Shown here: piece by piece, positions 2,734 to 10,395 of the stretch
Layout: each line of letters starts with the position of its first letter
Numbering within the stretch: position 1 is the stretch's first letter
Assembly (NCBI GenBank): GCA_964457625.1
Contig: CAYWES010000002.1
Location: forward strand, 30,239-94,238
DNA: 64,000 nt
Direction of reading: 5' to 3'
Source of the DNA: an uncultured Candidatus Saccharibacteria bacterium
GTDB taxonomy: Bacteria; Patescibacteriota; Minisyncoccia; Phycocordibacterales; UBA1550
Translations under genes and position numbers: made by a program
The notes under the pieces: generated by a model
Told to the model about the DNA's origin: nothing
Database searches by the model: none
The model's input: the letters and a program-made list of their open reading frames with translations, nothing else

Positions 2734-3801
2734 ATGTTACAAAAAGTTCTTTCGAGTATGCGATTTGTGGGCAAAGCCACCGTTCTCGGTGTCTTTAGTA
2801 TCGTTTCGCTTGCTATGCCGTTTAGTTTTGTGAGCGCGGCATCCCTTACCAATCTTTCCAACACGATGTCGTCTGCAAAGATAAGCACCGCATCAAGTCA
2901 TGAGATTAGGTTTACGACACCGACTGGTGCATCGGATGATACCGACACCATCGTGATCACTTTTCCCGCGGACTTTGATTTCACCGGCAAGGACATTGCA
3001 AGCGTTACATTTACCCACGGTCCAGCAACAGGACTTGAAAACACCGAGGTTCTCGCGGCAGCACCATCAGCAACCGAATGGGGCGCGGTATTCTCAGGTA
3101 CTGAGGATCGCGTTCTTACACTCACCGCTCCTACGGACGGCGTCGGGGCGGCATCGCTTGACGCGAACCACAGAGTGATCATCAGCTATGATGACACCGA
3201 TTCTCTCAACCCTTCAACCCCAGGGTCATATCAAATAACCATCAACGGTACGTTTGGTGATGTAGGGTTCATTACCGTAAACATTTTGAGTGATGACCAA
3301 GTTTCTGTGAGCGCAACGGTGGATCAATCCCTCACCTTTAGCATCTCTGACAACACCATCGGCTTTGGCACCCTTTCCTCAGTAGCAGCACGCTATGCGA
3401 CAGGGGATACTACGGGCAGTGCATCAGAAGTGGAGGCGCACAACATTATCGTGGGTACCAACGCTTCAAACGGATACACCATGACACTCGCGGGTGAGAC
3501 CCTCACCTCGGGTCTCGACACCATTGACGCAATCGGTGCAGCCAACACCGCGTCTGCCACAGGGACCGAACAGTTTGGTCTCCGCATGACCGCAACGGAT
3601 GGTATAGGAGCTGTTTCCGCTCCCTATGCTGCCGCAGGATTCGCGTTTGATACCGCCTCCTTTCCTGACGAAGTAGCTTCCTCTGTCGGCGCGAGCGCAG
3701 ACACGACCTACTCCGTACGTTATCTTGCAAACATTGAATCAAACACAGAAGCAGGTGCCTACACCGCGGCTCTTACCTACGTAGCGACCGCAAACTTCTA
3801 A
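2734..3801 (+). CDS. Secreted surface protein, paralog B, carrying the shared C-terminal domain
   Basis: Signal peptide ending VSAAS. The C-terminal domain (LTFSISDNTIGFGTLSSVAARYATGDT...YVATANF) aligns with paralog A; most differences fall at synonymous positions. Confidence 0.55.
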   Translation: MLQKVLSSMRFVGKATVLGVFSIVSLAMPFSFVSAASLTNLSNTMSSAKISTASSHEIRFTTPTGASDDTDTIVITFPADFDFTGKDIASVTFTHGPATGLENTEVLAAAPSATEWGAVFSGTEDRVLTLTAPTDGVGAASLDANHRVIISYDDTDSLNPSTPGSYQITINGTFGDVGFITVNILSDDQVSVSATVDQSLTFSISDNTIGFGTLSSVAARYATGDTTGSASEVEAHNIIVGTNASNGYTMTLAGETLTSGLDTIDAIGAANTASATGTEQFGLRMTATDGIGAVSAPYAAAGFAFDTASFPDEVASSVGASADTTYSVRYLANIESNTEAGAYTAALTYVATANF

Positions 3802-3834: not shown

Positions 3835-4815
3835 ATGAACTCTCTTCTCAAGACCTCTCTCTGGGCGATCGCTCTCTTTCTCGGGGGAGGCTTGGGTTCT
3901 GTATCGGCACTCACCATCTCTCCGGCAAAAATAGAAATCACGGGAGATCCGGGAACCACGCTTCATGGAGAGATAAAACTCTACAACGAGCAGACGGGAG
4001 CACGCACCTTCTTTGCTTCGTATGAAAACTTTGAGCCGATCGGAGAAGCGGGAACGCCGTATTTCGTGGGCGGAACAGAGGGTCTCGCGACGTGGATTGA
4101 TACGGAACGAAGTATCACCATCGCTTCGGGAGAAACACAGACAATTCCCTTCACCATCACCATTCCCACGGACGCAACTCCGGGAGGGCACTTCGGTGCA
4201 ATCTTTTGGGGAACTCAGAATCCTGAAAACAGAGGCGGGGGAGAGGTCTCTGTGGGTGCGAAACTCGGCGCACTTGTTCTCTTGAGAGTTTCGGGCGCTA
4301 TTGAGGAAAACGCGGGAATCTTGGACTTTGAAACAAAAGACAAGCAACGCTTTTTCAGTAGCCTTCCTGTGGCGTTTACCTACCGTGTAAACAATGCCGG
4401 CGGTGACCGTATCGTTCCTCGCGGAGACATACAGATCAAAAACTCTGTACGCTTTACCACGAGCAATCTTACTGCAAACAAAACCGAAGGAAACGTCCTT
4501 CCGGGAAGCGCGCGCAGGTTTGAAACCGTATGGGAATCCAAAGGAGAACACACTGAAGGAGGATTTTGGAATGGAGTGGTGCGAGAAGTACGAGATTTCC
4601 GTTTGGGCTGGTATACCGCTACCCTCGATCTTTCTTGGGGCGGAGCTCCGAATCAACGAGATACCTCTACGTACCACTTCTTCATTTTCCCATGGCATTT
4701 ACTCACGATAGTATTCTTGGGCGGTGGAGTACTCCTCTTCCTTGGAGGAAGGGGTCTCAAGAGCTATAACAAGCGCATTATTGGACGCGCACTCGCGCAA
4801 CAACAGAAACAATAG
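3835..4815 (+). CDS. Cell-surface protein with N-terminal signal peptide, beta-rich ectodomain and a C-terminal transmembrane anchor plus basic tail
   Basis: Signal peptide. The ISPAKIEITGDPG...EIKLYNE chaperone/Ig-like pattern. The C-terminal hydrophobic helix (LLTIVFLGGGVLLFLGG) is followed by KSYNKRIIGR. Confidence 0.55.
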   Translation: MNSLLKTSLWAIALFLGGGLGSVSALTISPAKIEITGDPGTTLHGEIKLYNEQTGARTFFASYENFEPIGEAGTPYFVGGTEGLATWIDTERSITIASGETQTIPFTITIPTDATPGGHFGAIFWGTQNPENRGGGEVSVGAKLGALVLLRVSGAIEENAGILDFETKDKQRFFSSLPVAFTYRVNNAGGDRIVPRGDIQIKNSVRFTTSNLTANKTEGNVLPGSARRFETVWESKGEHTEGGFWNGVVREVRDFRLGWYTATLDLSWGGAPNQRDTSTYHFFIFPWHLLTIVFLGGGVLLFLGGRGLKSYNKRIIGRALAQQQKQ

Positions 4816-4816
4816 T

Positions 4817-5863
4817 GTGGCACGCTTTTTGGCAAAGCTTGTTTTGTCGTTCCTGTGTTTCTTTATTTTTCCGATTGCCACGTCCGCGATGACAATCACG
4901 GTCTCTGCGCTTGTCCCCGGATGTGGAGATGGGATTAAAGGAGTGGGGGAGCAGTGTGATGGTACGGACTTTGGTGGTGCGTCATGCTCAACATATGGCT
5001 TTTCAGGGGGAACGATCTCGTGCAGTAGTGCGTGTACGGTGGTCACCAATGCATGTACGGCTCCTCCCGGTGGCGGAGGTGGAGGCGGTGGGGGCGGAGG
5101 AGGAGGTGGTGTAGTGTTTATCCCCTCAAGCAATGTCGTTACCACGGGCCTTGCCTTCCCGGGGGCGATTGTGAAGCTTCTCAAGGATGGTCAGCTCATG
5201 GCTACTACGGTCGCGGGGAGTGACGCGGGCTTCTCGCTCACCATCAGTAATGTCTCTACGGGTACGTATAATTTCTCGGTTGTCGCGGAAGACACGACCG
5301 GTCTCCATACGCCCATCTTCACCTTTCCGCTTTCTATCGTCTCGTCGACGACTACAAAGGTTGACGACCTCTTTCTTGCGCCCACCATCTTTCTTGATAA
5401 AACTCAAGTAAAGTACGGTGACGCGCTTATTGTGTCGGGAAAGACCGTACCCCATGCCGTAGTAACCATACAAATACAATCGCCCGCGGTCTCTACGCTG
5501 ACGATATCGTCAAATGCTCTGGGCGTATACGCGCACTCTCTCAATACGAGTCCGTTTGGACTCGGGCAACACAGTGTCGTCGTGAGCGCGACAAAAGACG
5601 AGCTCACGAGTAAGCCGTCCAGCACCAAAACATTTCTCATCGGTACGGAAAACGTGTTTGCGGATGTTCCGCAGGTCTCCTTTCTCAAAGGAGACCTCAA
5701 CAATGATGGACGGGTGAATCTCACGGACTTTTCTATTGCGGCATTTTGGTATCGAAAGCCTCTTACCGAAGCGTTTAAGGTCGTTGAATTTGAGCGCCTC
5801 AACGGTGATGGTGCCATCACGCTCGTAGACTTCAGTATTATGGCGTTTTATTGGACGGGGTAG
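4817..5863 (+). CDS. Secreted protein with a Cys-rich repeat, a poly-Gly linker, Ig-like domains and a C-terminal type-I dockerin
   Basis: GTG start immediately after the upstream stop, followed by a signal peptide (cleavage at ATSA|MT). The CGDGxxxxxEQCDG motif resembles myxococcal Cys-rich repeats. G14 linker. The C-terminus GDLNNDGRVNLTDFSI...LNGDGAITLVDFSI has a duplicated DxNxDGxVNxxD calcium-binding pattern. Confidence 0.6.
   Translation: MARFLAKLVLSFLCFFIFPIATSAMTITVSALVPGCGDGIKGVGEQCDGTDFGGASCSTYGFSGGTISCSSACTVVTNACTAPPGGGGGGGGGGGGGGVVFIPSSNVVTTGLAFPGAIVKLLKDGQLMATTVAGSDAGFSLTISNVSTGTYNFSVVAEDTTGLHTPIFTFPLSIVSSTTTKVDDLFLAPTIFLDKTQVKYGDALIVSGKTVPHAVVTIQIQSPAVSTLTISSNALGVYAHSLNTSPFGLGQHSVVVSATKDELTSKPSSTKTFLIGTENVFADVPQVSFLKGDLNNDGRVNLTDFSIAAFWYRKPLTEAFKVVEFERLNGDGAITLVDFSIMAFYWTG
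5684..5860 (+). repeat. Dockerin-coding segment, copy 1 of a dispersed direct repeat
   Basis: 177 bp aligning without gaps to 8573-8749. The 3' ~75 bp differ at a single position. Confidence 0.85.
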
Positions 5864-5884
5864 TCGTCGCGGAGTCGCGGGAGG

Positions 5885-8755
5885 ATGAACTTGTGGTATA
5901 ATATCTTCGTGAACACGATGAAAAGAAGTTTTTTGTTAATCAAACTATTCTCAATCGGATTTGTCTTTTCCCTTGCGTGGGCATTTTTTGTGTCCCCCAA
6001 CCTCTTTGCCGCGGGGGAGAGCTATACGGTGTGTCCCGTTGGTTGTGATTTTCTTACCTTAACGGACGCGCTTCTTGAGCCCGGAATCGGGGATGATACG
6101 ATTATCCTTACGGAAGACTATGTGTTTGTTGATCTTGATGAACAAGATAGCCTCAGTATCCCCGACGGTATTGCTATTGTGTGTGCTCCCGGGGCGGGGA
6201 AGCTGGGAGGAGCGACGGATACCGTGCTCATGTTTTTTGGTGGAGAGAATACTTCGTTTGAAGGATGCACGTTTGAAAATGTACAATTTGATATTTCGGG
6301 GAAATCGGGTTTCTCGTTTACGCATAATACATTTTCCCCTGACGCGCTGAGTGTCATGATACTCACCCACGCGACGGATGTGACTATTACGGACAATATT
6401 GATATTCAAAAAATCCAAATTCAGACCGCGGATGATGTGCTCATTGAAAATAATTCCTTCGCGTGTCGCTTTGAAAGTACCTGCCTTAATGCCGTCACTG
6501 CCGGGGCACCTGATCTTTCTGATGATGCGGACATCAGCAACAATCTCATCATTAGAAACAACACTATTGTTAATCACAAAAAAGACAATGGTGGTGATTG
6601 GGTGCATTTTTGGGGAGGACGAGATATTGAATTTACCGGCAATACGGTGTATTCAGCGGTGACGCTTGATGAGAATATCTATCTGACGGTCGTTACGGTG
6701 ACCGGCGCGCAGATTGAATTTCGCGACAATTTCATTATTACGCCGGAGAAAGACGGCGCGCAAACGAGCGCGACGTGGGCGTTCAATCTTCGTGTCCAGG
6801 AGTACGCCATTGATGTTCTCTTTGATCACAATACCATCCTCCATCGCAATACAATGTCGGGGGCTGATGGGAATGCGTGTTTCGGACTCTATGATCAAGG
6901 GGGCAACCCAAATCTCTCCGTTACGATAACCGCCACATACAATCTTTGTCACCAGGTGGGAACAACTCAGCGGGGGAGGGGTATTTATTTTTCTTACGAC
7001 ATAGGGAGCGTTAATCCTTCGTTGAATGATTCTTGGAATGGATTTTCAAATATTGCTACTCCAATTAGTGATGATGAGGGTATTATCACGACACTTGATG
7101 GAACTACGGTACTGCGCAACGCACTCTTGCGTCTCGAGGACCCGGACCCAAGCAACCACGGTATTCCAAACCCCGTAAGTACGTATCTTGATGTTAACGG
7201 CACCAATGATATTGGGGCGTGGAGTGGTGCTCGCGTTACAACGATTCTCGTAGACGATGGATGCGTTGTTGATTACACTACCTGCCATGGCAATGGGACA
7301 GATTTTCTTCGTCATGCTTTGCGTGATGGAGATACGGCATACCTTGCCGATGGTATATATAGCCCTGTGGTGATACAAGGGTTTGATAATATCTCTCTTG
7401 TTGGGTCTTCGGGTACGATTATTGATGCTTTGGGTGGCGGGTTTGGTTTGGTCCTTGAGAATATTTCCAATAGCTCGTTTCAAGGTATTCGCGTTGAGCA
7501 AGCATCCAGCACATCAACCACGCATACGATTACCATGCCGGGGCTCTCTATGGGAGGGACTGATTACACTGCGTTTCCCGGGTTTATTCTTTTGGGTAAC
7601 GACTGCAATGTGGACAATCTCCTCCTCCCCTCAACGCCGACTGATATATCAGGAGTCACGGGGGTTGGTACCGAGGATTTTGTACTTATGCTTATACACT
7701 TACCTCCGGGGATAGTTGACCCTGACAATGATGCCTATATCACCGCACTTGTGCGAACGAGCCTCATATCGGTCCCGGGGGATTTGACGACACTCTGCGG
7801 TATGCCAGAAAGCTTCATTGATGTATTCCTGAATCCAGGCTTTTCTCTGTCGGACGGAGTATATAATTTTAATGCTACTGATTTTACTGACGAAGGAATC
7901 ACAACAGTCGGTGGCGCTCCACTTCCTTCAATAACAACAGTCACACTCGACGGTATCGGACTCATTCTTGATAATGTAAGCAATACCACCTTTACGGATT
8001 TTGTTTCTACTGACAGTCGCAAGGGGGTAATCGTCCAAGGGGGAAGTGATGGGAATACATTTATTGATAGTGACCTCACGGGAAATACCACTGCTGATAT
8101 TCATAGTATAAGTACGGGGGATACCATATTGCATCAGACGCTTTTTACGCTCGCGAACACGCTCATTGATGATTCCGGAATCATTATTGTCTCTCAAGAC
8201 ATGCAAGTCCACGTCGAAGATTCACAGGGAGCTCCGCTTTCGGGAGCGCAGGTTACGTTTACTGACAAATCTTCCAACGTGACGGGGCCGCTCACGACCG
8301 ATGGAGCCGGGGATATTCCCATCACTTCCATTCCGCTCTACTTTTTGAATCAAGCAAACCCCACGAATCCTCTCGCTAACACCAACAATCCATATCAGGT
8401 GAGTGTGACGAAGGCTGGATATACTCCAAAGACCACGGGAGTCACCATTACCTCGGGAGTTCAGCTTCTCACGGTCGTTCTCGCTACGCAACCTTCTTCG
8501 GGTGGTACGACAACAGGGGGTGGCGGAGGGGTTTTCATTCCGGCACCGGTTGTTCCCGAACCTACGAGCTTCCTCAAAGGAGACCTCAATAATGACGGAC
8601 TTGTAAATCTCATAGACTTCTCCATCGCGGCGTTTTGGTATCGAAAATCTCTCAGTGACGCATTCAAAGTCGTGGAACTTGAACGTCTCAACGGTGATGG
8701 TGCCATCACGCTCGTAGACTTCAGTATCATGGCGTTTTATTGGACAAAGTCATAA
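5885..8755 (+). CDS. Large secreted parallel beta-helix protein with a CarboxypepD_reg-like domain and a C-terminal type-I dockerin
   Basis: N-terminal signal/anchor. Many NxS/T and IxxN repeats typical of right-handed beta-helix (PbH1) proteins. A VHVEDSQGAPLSGAQVTF...TKAGYTPK domain. Gly linker, then a dockerin nearly identical to that of 4817-5863. Confidence 0.65.
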   Translation: MNLWYNIFVNTMKRSFLLIKLFSIGFVFSLAWAFFVSPNLFAAGESYTVCPVGCDFLTLTDALLEPGIGDDTIILTEDYVFVDLDEQDSLSIPDGIAIVCAPGAGKLGGATDTVLMFFGGENTSFEGCTFENVQFDISGKSGFSFTHNTFSPDALSVMILTHATDVTITDNIDIQKIQIQTADDVLIENNSFACRFESTCLNAVTAGAPDLSDDADISNNLIIRNNTIVNHKKDNGGDWVHFWGGRDIEFTGNTVYSAVTLDENIYLTVVTVTGAQIEFRDNFIITPEKDGAQTSATWAFNLRVQEYAIDVLFDHNTILHRNTMSGADGNACFGLYDQGGNPNLSVTITATYNLCHQVGTTQRGRGIYFSYDIGSVNPSLNDSWNGFSNIATPISDDEGIITTLDGTTVLRNALLRLEDPDPSNHGIPNPVSTYLDVNGTNDIGAWSGARVTTILVDDGCVVDYTTCHGNGTDFLRHALRDGDTAYLADGIYSPVVIQGFDNISLVGSSGTIIDALGGGFGLVLENISNSSFQGIRVEQASSTSTTHTITMPGLSMGGTDYTAFPGFILLGNDCNVDNLLLPSTPTDISGVTGVGTEDFVLMLIHLPPGIVDPDNDAYITALVRTSLISVPGDLTTLCGMPESFIDVFLNPGFSLSDGVYNFNATDFTDEGITTVGGAPLPSITTVTLDGIGLILDNVSNTTFTDFVSTDSRKGVIVQGGSDGNTFIDSDLTGNTTADIHSISTGDTILHQTLFTLANTLIDDSGIIIVSQDMQVHVEDSQGAPLSGAQVTFTDKSSNVTGPLTTDGAGDIPITSIPLYFLNQANPTNPLANTNNPYQVSVTKAGYTPKTTGVTITSGVQLLTVVLATQPSSGGTTTGGGGGVFIPAPVVPEPTSFLKGDLNNDGLVNLIDFSIAAFWYRKSLSDAFKVVELERLNGDGAITLVDFSIMAFYWTKS
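8573..8749 (+). repeat. Dockerin-coding segment, copy 2 of a dispersed direct repeat
   Basis: See copy 1. About 83% identity overall, with a mosaic distribution of differences. Confidence 0.85.
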
Positions 8756-8764
8756 TGTACAACC

Positions 8765-9613
8765 ATGCGCATAATTAACACCGTATTCCTCATAGCATTT
8801 CTTTTCCCCGCATGGGCGCAGGCACTGGAGGTACGCCTTGAGACGCAGAAGGCATCTTTTCACAAAGGAGAACTCATCACGGTGGATGTATTTCTCGATG
8901 CCACGGATCCCGTAAATGTAATCTCGGCAAAACTCATATACCCGGAGAGACATCTTTCTTTGGGCGGGATCGTCGACGGAAGTTCGGCGGTTTCTCTTTG
9001 GATTGATCGACCAAAACGCACAAGCTCCGGGGAAATCTCGTTTTCCGGCATGACGCCCGGGGGGATTGAGGGGAAAGAGAACAAGGTGTTTTCTGCCACA
9101 TTTGTCGCGGATCGACCGGGAGACGTGGCGTTTGGTTTGATACAAGGGGAAGCGTTTCTTCATGATGGGCTTGGCTCCGCCCATCCTTTCGAGACGTCTC
9201 TCTCTATTTCTATCGATGCAGGAGAATCTTTGTCTCCGGAGGAAGGTACCTTCCTCGACACTATTCCTCCTGAGGATTTTTTCGTAACGCTTTCCCATGA
9301 TCCAAACCTTTTTGGAGGGAAATACTTCCTTGTGTTTACGACACAAGATAAAGAGTCAGGGATTGATCACTATAAAGTGCGTGAGGGTCGCTGGGGATTC
9401 TTCCGCACTGCGGAGAGCCCGTACCTTTTGCGCGATCAATCACCCACACATAGTATCAGCGTAAAAGCAGTAGATCGATTTGGTAATGAGCGCGTGGCGG
9501 TGTTTCATCCCGAACAGACTTCTTCATTGTGGGATGACATAAAAGGTCTTGTCGTGGTAGTATTACTAGTAAGCATAACAGGTATTATCCTATGGCGCAG
9601 ATATACAAAATAA
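8765..9613 (+). CDS. Membrane-anchored protein with a cohesin-like N-domain
   Basis: Signal peptide with AxA cleavage (AWAQA|LEV). The N-domain pattern EVRLETQKASFHKGELITVDVFLDATDPVNVISAKLIYPERHL matches a cohesin-type beta-sandwich. A second Ig/FN3-like domain, then a C-terminal TM helix and RRYTK tail. Confidence 0.5.
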   Translation: MRIINTVFLIAFLFPAWAQALEVRLETQKASFHKGELITVDVFLDATDPVNVISAKLIYPERHLSLGGIVDGSSAVSLWIDRPKRTSSGEISFSGMTPGGIEGKENKVFSATFVADRPGDVAFGLIQGEAFLHDGLGSAHPFETSLSISIDAGESLSPEEGTFLDTIPPEDFFVTLSHDPNLFGGKYFLVFTTQDKESGIDHYKVREGRWGFFRTAESPYLLRDQSPTHSISVKAVDRFGNERVAVFHPEQTSSLWDDIKGLVVVVLLVSITGIILWRRYTK

Positions 9614-9615
9614 TA

Positions 9616-10395
9616 ATGATAACGGGAGCGTTGTTCTTTGCTCCCCATGTGACGTTCGCGGCAAGCCTCTTCCTTTCTCCTGCTTCGGGAGTGCATGACG
9701 TCGGCACCACCTTTTCCGTCGTGGTTTCTGTGGGAAGTCCTTCTCAAGATATGAATGCCACATCGGGGGTCATTTCATTCCCCGTGGACGCACTTGAGGT
9801 TGTCTCGATATCTCGCACGAATTCAATCATCTCATTTTGGGTGCAAGAGCCTACTTTTTCAAACACGCAAGGTTCTATTTCTTTTGAAGGCGTCGCTCTC
9901 GATCAATCCTTCAGAGGTTCAAATGGGAGAATCTTTTCGGTAGTCTTTCGCGCAAAACAAGCAGGTACGGCAGGGGTGAGTTTCTCCTCGGGTTCGGTCT
10001 TGGCAAGTGACGGATTGGGGACGAACATTTTACAAACACTCTCTCCCGGCTCCTACGCCCTTGCGGTCCCTAAGCCACCAGTAGAACCTCCTCGCAGAGA
10101 AGAGCCAATCGTGGAGGAGCCTCTTGTAGAAACTCCAGAAGAGATTCCGGAAGAAACGCCTCCTTTGGTGGAAGAGATAGTGATTCCGGAGGAACCGGCA
10201 ATCTCAGAATACTTTATAGAACGAGCGCCTTGGTATCGTTTGGAAGTTCCCGTTTCAGTGGGTCTTCTCACGATAATCTTGCTTATCCTTCTCATCTCAA
10301 TCACCTTAAATGTCGTGTTTGGTTCCCACTACACGGCGCGAACGATTCATCATGTGAGAAAGAGACGCGTACGAACTCCGAAGAAGGACATCTAA
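9616..10395 (+). CDS. Membrane-anchored protein with a cohesin-like domain and a Pro/Glu-rich linker
   Basis: Signal peptide. LSPASGVHDVGTTFSVVVSV...ATSGVISFPVDALEVVSI closely matches a cohesin domain. A (P/E)-rich stalk, then a C-terminal TM helix and basic tail. Confidence 0.55.
   Translation: MITGALFFAPHVTFAASLFLSPASGVHDVGTTFSVVVSVGSPSQDMNATSGVISFPVDALEVVSISRTNSIISFWVQEPTFSNTQGSISFEGVALDQSFRGSNGRIFSVVFRAKQAGTAGVSFSSGSVLASDGLGTNILQTLSPGSYALAVPKPPVEPPRREEPIVEEPLVETPEEIPEETPPLVEEIVIPEEPAISEYFIERAPWYRLEVPVSVGLLTIILLILLISITLNVVFGSHYTARTIHHVRKRRVRTPKKDI

Follow-up and report, generated by a model that had tools for sequence, protein, structure and literature searches.

The window analysed here, a stretch of 64,000 nucleotides of contig CAYWES010000002.1 (positions 30,239 to 94,238 of the forward strand; assembly GCA_964457625.1, an uncultured Candidatus Saccharibacteria bacterium), contains four adjacent genes, designated A, B, C and D, which encode two secreted proteins with a C-terminal dockerin (A and B) and two membrane proteins with one cohesin each (C and D). 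We consider these genes, with a probability of about 70%, to be a non-cellulosomal cohesin-dockerin tethering module of the Patescibacteria envelope. A, C and D represent a dockerin-cohesin-cohesin triad that is conserved as a cassette throughout the phylum. A first-pass annotation, made from the letters of the window alone, had interpreted the four genes as a minimal cellulosome-like scaffold that probably displays beta-helix proteins on the cell surface; this interpretation is, as a whole, partly supported.

Dockerin tails and cohesin domains

The C-terminal modules of A and B are predicted to be dockerins, i.e., two tandem segments of ~22 residues, each with a Ca loop of the EF-hand type (positions 1, 3, 5, 9 and 12 being the ligands) and a helix after it. 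With Pfam Dockerin_1 (PF00404) the module of A passes the cut-off and that of B falls short of it (Table 1); in both proteins the Pfam alignment spans the first repeat only. Residues 897-955 of B match the solved dockerin 2y3n_B over both repeats (phmmer, E 1.4e-4). Furthermore, a profile of 27 orthologous tails finds 2y3n_B in the PDB at E 2e-6, and its first nine matches are all dockerin modules or dockerin-bearing enzymes. In 75 distinct orthologues the Ca ligands of repeat 1 are canonical (D1 100%, N3 93%, D5 99%, N9 95%, D12 100%), and repeat 2 keeps N3, D5 and D12, with Asp at position 1 in 41% only. In repeat 2 of A and B in the window, positions 1 and 9 are occupied by Arg and Thr, respectively, and the initial description of both Ca-binding segments as intact is thus right for repeat 1 and only partly right for repeat 2. 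The label 'type-I dockerin', given at the same time, cannot be assigned, the best solved match (2y3n_B) being titled 'Type II cohesin-dockerin domain from Bacteroides cellulosolvens'.

The dockerins of A and B are ~88% identical as peptides and 85% identical as DNA over 177 nt, a closeness to be expected if both serve the same receptors. The best orthologue has ≤76% identity to the window dockerin, i.e., less than A and B have to each other, from which we conclude that B acquired the dockerin of A within this lineage. This dockerin type was found across the 64 kb of the window in A and B only, and in the loci fetched from other genomes (denoted by L and a number; see the next section) a strong match (≥60 bits) is present in one gene per locus. 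A search with the 62-aa dockerin in a library of 1.84 billion representatives returned 1,223 proteins (E ≤0.001). Most of the best 150 of them have ~250-520 aa and carry the dockerin at the extreme C-terminus, the remainder of these 150 being proteins of 66-250 aa (probably fragments), two single-dockerin proteins of >600 aa and a few multi-repeat proteins. The presence of the dockerin in a single gene per locus, at the C-terminus of A-sized proteins, points to a dedicated ligand with two receptors rather than to an open display platform. In one locus (L046:915-8318), three consecutive open reading frames (ORFs; 755-882 aa) upstream of A end in weak dockerin-profile matches (16-26 bits), and additional dockerin cargo comparable to B may therefore occur sporadically in other lineages.

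The cohesin pattern that had been read in the N-terminal domains of C and D escapes Pfam Cohesin (PF00963), with which D scores 20.7 bits (E 5e-4; cut-off 24.1) and C gives no match. As PDB searches with the single sequences of C and D returned only noise (catechol dioxygenase, CheW), profiles and structure prediction were needed. Pfam Cohesin is matched at E ≤0.01 by 20 of 37 D relatives (best 8e-11), and the C-family profile finds R. flavefaciens cohesins at E 0.003; in the comparison of the D-family profile with the PDB, the Ig-like domains of the longer homologues were matched, and no cohesins. The families of C and D align with a probability of 100% (hhalign, E 3e-41), their N-terminal domains being homologous. 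In the AlphaFold2 (AF2) model of C (pLDDT 92.7) a beta-sandwich (aa 21-154) is followed by a second beta domain (aa 174-247) and a helix (aa 253-281), and Foldseek ranks the cohesin+FnIII double module 2w1n first (E 5e-10) and dozens of cohesins after it. The model of D (pLDDT 86.1) consists of a sandwich (aa 16-150), a disordered stalk and a helix (aa 215-251; about aa 206-240 according to hydrophobicity), and the top 46 Foldseek matches in the PDB are all cohesins (E down to 5.7e-9, TM-score 0.72-0.81). Structure prediction thus bears out the cohesin fold, a nine-stranded flattened beta-sandwich superposable on solved cohesins, for the N-terminal domains of both C and D. They are closest to type I and non-cellulosomal cohesins, whereas type II and III cohesins fit worse (TM-score about 0.5). 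The window contains one cohesin in C, one in D and none besides.

All four proteins (4/4) have a signal-like hydrophobic segment at the N-terminus. C and D end, as was recognised from the beginning, in a single hydrophobic helix with a basic tail (RRYTK in C, HHVRKRRVRTPKKDI in D), and judging from these signals they are single-pass membrane proteins with the cohesin outside. The C-terminal transmembrane (TM) helix is found in 74 of 80 C proteins and in 84 of 86 D proteins. The Pro/Glu-rich stalk attributed to one of the receptors is that of D (64 aa with 15 Pro and 17 Glu). The D protein of the window is the shortest of its family, having neither the long cytoplasmic tail of its relatives nor a second Ig/FnIII-like ectodomain. 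Most D orthologues possess 340-630 aa (e.g., L016:10821-12557, L012:7248-8747, L021:10887-12767), with 60-100 aa of cytoplasmic tail after the TM helix, and this tail ends in a conserved charged helix (~LKKDLDxAEKFIKKEIEDIEKEVK).

Table 1. Genes of the cluster and of its upstream neighbourhood (nt, window coordinates; residues of D are numbered from the start at 9616).
Feature	Position (nt)	Strand	Product	Parts or match
A	4817 (GTG start)-5863	+	348 aa; dockerin-bearing secreted protein	signal peptide aa 1-24; N-terminal amphipathic strand MTITVSALVPG; Cys-rich knot; G14 linker; two Ig-like domains; dockerin
A dockerin	5678-5860	+	aa 288-348	Pfam Dockerin_1 24.0 bits (cut-off 22.9)
B	5885-8755	+	956 aa; beta-helix protein with C-terminal dockerin	signal peptide; right-handed beta-helix aa 117-255 and further repeats; CarboxypepD_reg/Big_1-like aa 772-813; Gly/Pro linker; dockerin
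B dockerin	8570-8749	+	aa 896-955	Pfam Dockerin_1 18.3 bits (below cut-off)
C	8765-9613	+	282 aa; candidate membrane cohesin receptor 1	signal peptide aa 1-20; cohesin aa 21-154 (8825-9226); FnIII-like aa 174-247 (9284-9505); TM aa 253-281; tail RRYTK
D	9616-10395 or 9592-10395	+	259 aa or 267 aa; candidate membrane cohesin receptor 2	signal peptide; cohesin aa 16-150 (9661-10065); Pro/Glu stalk aa 151-214 (10066-10257); TM; basic tail
P1	1638-2627	+	secreted Pam-type pilin	N-terminal domain Cys-rich; NF058581
P2	2734-3801	+	secreted Pam-type pilin	NF058581
H	3835-4815	+	WxLIP-like membrane protein	signal peptide; two beta-rich domains; TM aa 282-308; basic tail

A cassette conserved across Patescibacteria

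With one genome searched per species, at least 253 species encode a relative of C; 80 loci were retrieved, and their modules were counted with custom hidden Markov models. The loci represent many candidate phyla and carry labels such as Kaiser-, Taylor-, Wolfe-, Falkow-, Magasanik-, Staskawicz-, Nomura-, Doudna- and Veblenbacteria. A C relative is also present in Ca. Microsyncoccus archaeolyticus PMX.50 (L072), which has been enriched in culture and is a parasite of a methanogen. A dockerin gene lies ≤600 nt upstream of C in 62 of the 63 loci that could be judged, and a D-type cohesin gene directly downstream of C in 78 of 80; 14 loci have 2-4 D paralogues. The dockerin-cohesin-cohesin triad is a cassette conserved throughout the phylum, a point that the first-pass annotation had not made, and its gene order identifies A as the conserved ligand. 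Full-text literature searches returned no description of this cassette, the nearest mention being that of a dockerin-domain protein essential in a cultured Saccharibacterium. NCBI names a few C relatives 'cohesin domain-containing protein', and recognition at the domain level is therefore not new. The three-gene cassette itself, its anchoring by TM helices, its spread across the phylum and its linkage to Pam-type pilin genes appear to be undescribed.

Proteins of the A family vary in their N-terminal heads and share the dockerin, the Gly-rich hinge and a pair of Ig-like domains. In the window, the linker of A consists of exactly 14 Gly (aa 85-98, nt 5069-5110), as had been seen before, and Big_6 is matched with 29.8 bits (Pfam). 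The Cys pattern CGDG...GEQCDG is conserved; the myxo-type Cys-rich repeat postulated for this protein was undetected in A of the window, a sub-cut-off match in an orthologue being the only one. A second cassette type (L004, L017, L022, L050) possesses an A protein of ~450 aa, whose head combines an SSSF-rich motif with FnIII, and usually two D paralogues. Upstream of its A gene there are genes for giant proteins (2,000-2,400 aa) and small proteins (~140 aa), and L017:7110-8129 encodes a class A beta-lactamase-like protein. A PHROGs search with A and B gave no match, and the label 'tail-fibre-like' was discarded for both as lacking sequence support.

B is specific to the locus of the window, as a second dockerin gene between A and C is present in 1 of 80 loci. 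The beta-helix protein, initially seen as the kind of protein that is displayed, is thus an insertion, and it is the Ig-stalk protein A (348 aa) that represents the conserved ligand. The description of B as a 956-aa beta-helix protein is correct (Beta_helix 28.6 bits, cut-off 25.9), while its CarboxypepD_reg-like domain stays below the cut-off (27.8 vs 32.3 bits). Only eight B homologues were found; seven share the beta-helix body, and homologues give weak NosD matches. Most of them end in three SLH domains or in PG_binding_1 at the C-terminal position where B carries the dockerin. This exchange of surface-anchoring modules supports an anchoring role for the dockerin, and the surface tethering proposed in the first-pass annotation is, on this comparison of sequences, probably right. 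One SLH-ending B homologue (L087:6001-9381) is encoded immediately downstream of an F-type ATP synthase operon.

Proposed tethering mechanism, operon context and pilin genes

We propose that C and D are exported by Sec and held in the cytoplasmic membrane by their single C-terminal helix, with the positive tail inside. The cohesin of C would be located near the membrane on an FnIII-like pedestal, and that of D further out on a Pro/Glu stalk of ~64 residues, instead of which extra Ig/FnIII-like domains would be used in other genomes. The secreted proteins A and B would plug their dockerins Ca2+-dependently into the cohesins of C and D and would so be retained at the surface without a covalent link. 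A would be the ancestral partner, with its variable head projecting outward as an adhesin or adaptor. B, whose relatives are SLH- or peptidoglycan-anchored, has gained a copy of the dockerin of A in this lineage and would use the same receptors. Domain identities, signals of Sec export and of a single-pass N-out topology, near-obligate gene adjacency and the exchange of anchoring modules in B are shown by the present data. We infer the binding of A and B to C and D from synteny; Ca dependence, the choice of partners among dockerins and cohesins and an adhesive role are presumed as well.

Several observations weigh against this mechanism. With Pfam, D of the window falls short of the cut-off for Cohesin and C is without any match; two canonical side-chain ligands are lost from repeat 2 of A and B; and two distinct cohesin paralogues are, puzzlingly, retained universally for essentially one ligand. 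B could equally be an enzyme, as the beta-helix fold is common to polysaccharide lyases and depolymerases. The failure of C and D at the cut-off and the degenerate second Ca loop would also be compatible with cohesin- and dockerin-like modules that do not bind each other at all, the folds of C and D being directed to the cell wall, the host surface or pilins and the tails of A and B serving as Ca-binding stabilising or wall-binding elements. However, the dockerin gene adjoins both cohesin genes near-absolutely across very divergent lineages (62/63 and 78/80), and the newly recruited cargo B copied exactly the dockerin of A, so that we regard independent modules as unlikely. A true minimal cellulosome-like complex, in which B and possibly A would be carbohydrate-active enzymes on scaffoldins attacking plant or host-surface polysaccharides, is very improbable. 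The cohesin-dockerin pairing itself would be compatible with it, and B has a right-handed beta-helix (Pfam 28.6 bits) and homologues with weak NosD matches. The right-handed beta-helix fold includes pectate lyases and phage depolymerases. In contrast, no glycoside hydrolase (GH), polysaccharide lyase or carbohydrate-binding module (CBM) family is found in A or B, each receptor has a single cohesin, the conserved ligand A has Cys-knot and Ig-like domains only, and B is present in 1/80 loci. In fact, the canonical cellulosome is defined by a scaffoldin with at least two cohesins and a dockerin-fused glycoside hydrolase (PMC13487519). Both defining features (the latter with its usual CBM) fail here, and the cellulosome was rejected. 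The initial remark that glycoside hydrolases are not recognisable thus stands (neither GH nor CBM families were found in any of the four proteins), and the comparison with a 'minimal cellulosome-like scaffold' does not, as there is one cohesin per receptor and neither a carbohydrate-active enzyme nor a CBM.

The tethering module is embedded in a larger gene set. All four co-directional ORFs of the first-pass annotation are present on the + strand, together with the peptide motifs quoted from them. The spacings between A and B (21 nt) and between B and C (9 nt) are as given there, and the '1-nt overlap' of C and D is slightly off: with a start of D at 9616 the two genes are separated by 2 nt, and with a start at 9592 they overlap by 22 nt. 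The latter start results in a better signal peptide with a charged n-region, and the Kaiserbacteria orthologue L002 has the same 22-nt C/D overlap. Further upstream, 33 nt separate P2 from H and 1 nt separates H from A, and on account of these tiny junctions we read P1-P2-H-A-B-C-D as one operon. A to D are the 3' half of this longer operon, whose two Pam-type pilin genes and gene for the WxLIP-like protein H had gone unmentioned, and presumed co-transcription with them suggests that the module belongs to a surface-appendage and attachment apparatus. The best promoter-like site of the region (10/12) is at 2651-2678, before P2; beyond it the promoter/terminator scan was uninformative, and an Rfam scan of the window found two tRNAs only, both away from the cluster. 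ORF 1-543, at the left edge, apparently belongs to a gene of which the window includes only the 3' end; as it clusters with the giant proteins encoded upstream of other cassettes, the operon probably begins beyond the window. In the product of the following ORF (531-1634), the C-terminal half is very acidic and rich in Glu and Ser. An origin from a prophage or mobile element was rejected, as there are no phage families and synteny is kept among chromosomal housekeeping genes. The host, suspected earlier to have a reduced genome, does belong to Patescibacteria (CPR, candidate phyla radiation), its nearest relatives being Kaiserbacteria and Paceibacterota metagenome-assembled genomes.

Pam pili, described in a preprint dated June 2026 (Troman et al., bioRxiv 10.64898/2026.03.03.709456), are donor-strand-exchange fibres of Ca. 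Mycosynbacter amalyticus studied by cryo-electron microscopy, in which the interdomain linker strand of the pilins is the donor strand. According to the same preprint, PamC and PamD are PapD/FimC-like chaperones with a C-terminal membrane anchor, and PamR is the proposed membrane anchor, predicted to insert an extra N-terminal strand in the last pilin and to possess a C-terminal TM helix. P1 and P2 match NCBIfam NF058581 (CPR_Pam_pilin_C) with 67.9 and 85.2 bits, respectively (cut-off 55), and A, B, C and D do not match it. In P2, the strand 'QVSVSATVDQS' directly precedes the start of the C-terminal domain, 'LTFSISDNTIGFG'; P1 has no 'VxVSATV' strand ahead of its C-terminal domain and may therefore be tip-like. 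The two pilin genes share an 89-nt direct repeat (2136-2224 and 3322-3410; 82% identical). The repeat codes for the beginning of the pilin C-terminal domain (LTFSISDNTIGFGTLSS...), where P1 and P2 are most conserved. Gene conversion or a strong constraint on the strand-acceptor site may account for it. The same pilin pair is present in many fetched loci, e.g., L002, L009, L011 and L048.

H matches Pfam WxLIP_PGBD at E 0.0018, 7 of 14 members of its family match this model (best E 6e-6), and the family profile finds EfmWxLIP1 (9i25_C) in the PDB at E 0.003. By analogy, H appears to have the architecture of the PamC/PamD chaperones (signal peptide, beta domains, TM, basic tail). With NCBIfam, however, H, A, B, C and D gave weak Ig-repeat matches only and no match to PamC, PamD or PamR. 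In an H-like subfamily of ~380-400 aa (L005:4245-5420, L020:4309-5460, L027:3741-5126), the C-terminal TM helix and a basic stretch are followed by a LysM domain; by the positive-inside rule this domain, which binds peptidoglycan, would be cytoplasmic, a puzzling topology. WxLIP, too, inserts a beta-hairpin strand into its WxL partner in an AlphaFold2 prediction. There may be an evolutionary relationship between Pam-type pilus operons and WxL clusters.

The linkage to pilins was counted in those 48 distinct loci in which ≥4.5 kb of sequence precede A. Strong Pam-pilin matches are found in 16 of them, in the order pilin, pilin, H, A, C, D. A member of the BLAST cluster that contains the Pam pilins ('cluster 0') is present in 33/48, H or a short H-like protein in 30/48 and both in 29/48; the divergent members of this cluster are not confirmed as Pam pilins by NCBIfam. 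Ten loci have other upstream families only, without a pilin-cluster or H-like protein, and four have none of these families. The mature A protein starts with an amphipathic strand in most strong-pilin loci in which its start could be located (MTITVSALVPG in the window, AITVEITATVPG in L002, DVAVSATVSE in L038), and these strands resemble the P2 motif 'QV[AS]V[TS]ATV'. With a position matrix of the P2 strand, 14 of 75 A proteins reach ≥8 bits vs 6.5% of background ORFs, and the best match within A of the window is not its N-terminus. As the enrichment is modest and the N-terminus of A in the window does not score, donor-strand exchange by A stays a lead only.

A tentative refinement of the tethering mechanism is that A is the terminal, cell-proximal subunit of a Pam-type pilus and is held by C and D. 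Its N-terminal strand could possibly complete the C-terminal domain of the last P2, and A together with C/D might be a split functional analogue of PamR. A itself lacks the C-terminal domain of the pilins and could therefore act as a strand donor only, not as an acceptor. The single operon with its tiny junctions, the gene order of the 16 strong-pilin loci, the co-occurrence of cluster and H-like proteins in 29/48, the likeness of the mature A strand to the P2 segment before the C-terminal domain and the donor-strand role of the Pam linker and predicted strand insertion by PamR are consistent with such an anchor at the pilus base. On the other hand, the strand-motif test is weak, the triad lacks any pilin-linked or H-like protein in 10/48 loci and all these families in 4/48, the 'cluster 0' proteins are unconfirmed, and, judged from sequence, 'VSVSATV' could be either the donor linker or the strand with which the C-terminal domain begins. 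Furthermore, the structural neighbours of C are cohesins, with no RbmA-like fold among them. It is rather doubtful, but conceivable, that, in monoderm CPR bacteria, the triad anchors a donor-strand-exchange pilus in the membrane, with A capping the cell-proximal end of the fibre and its dockerin engaging the two different cohesins of C and D, possibly simultaneously in a 1:1:1 complex. The two dockerin halves are pseudo-symmetric but consistently asymmetric (DFSIAAYWY in one, DFSIMAFYW in the other). The conserved cytoplasmic helix that D has in most genomes suggests that D could couple the fibre to the cell interior. If true, a pilus anchor of this kind would be unprecedented, both as a use of cohesin and dockerin in pilus retention and as an obligatory two-cohesin receptor.

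Significance and comparison with known systems

Patescibacteria represent a large share of bacterial diversity and live mostly attached to other cells, and the assembly and retention of their surface apparatus are largely unexplained. The breadth of the cassette (at least 253 species-level genomes) argues for a core envelope function rather than a niche trait. The attachment of adhesins or Pam pili to the membrane of such reduced, wall-poor cells could find its explanation in this cassette. Moreover, it offers a concrete protein-protein interaction, proposed to be Ca-dependent, between small domains that are easy to express. The cohesin-dockerin repertoire would gain a membrane-helix-anchored two-receptor format and orthogonal pairs for protein engineering.

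OlpA and OlpC of C. thermocellum and ScaE of R. flavefaciens are likewise single-cohesin surface anchoring proteins. However, they are SLH- or sortase-anchored and serve glycoside hydrolases or scaffoldins, whereas two paralogous receptors always stand beside one dedicated ligand in the cassette. Non-cellulosomal cohesin-dockerin modules were reportedly surveyed by Peer et al. in 2009. Such pairs, e.g., the toxin-complex cohesins of C. perfringens (2vo8, 2jh2, 2w1n) and the cohesin of Archaeoglobus fulgidus (2xdh), are alike in working mode, but the C. perfringens modules are located on secreted glycoside hydrolases and join enzymes, and those described here are located on dedicated membrane receptors in a three-gene cassette found across a phylum. 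ClcC and ClcD of Cellulosilyticum lentocellum (PMC13487519) are similarly encoded by adjacent single-cohesin and single-dockerin genes; ClcC possesses CBM3 and ClcD is a GH5 cellulase, whereas the cassette has no CBM, no GH and two receptors, both membrane-anchored.

The WxL clusters of Firmicutes (WxL proteins together with WxLIP, i.e., DUF916-DUF3324-TM; PMC10599100) are also operons for non-covalent display in monoderms and likewise encode a two-Ig-domain protein with a C-terminal TM anchor, and the H family matches WxLIP_PGBD and EfmWxLIP1. The similarity is weak (E 0.003), there are no WxL domains in the present system, and tethering would proceed via cohesin and dockerin rather than via WxL and peptidoglycan. 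The Pam pilus (bioRxiv 10.64898/2026.03.03.709456) shares with our locus the NF058581 pilins; H resembles PamC/PamD in its apparent architecture, and both systems are monoderm, Sec-dependent and usher-less. The preprint reports Pam pilins mainly from Saccharimonadia and Microgenomatia and does not mention cohesin or dockerin; the locus described here and its relatives are of the Kaiserbacteria/Paceibacteria type, and the Pam system may therefore be more widespread. Its anchor is a single protein, PamR (RbmA-like, two FnIII domains and a TM helix), whereas in the present locus a dockerin protein and its putative cohesin receptors would take this place.

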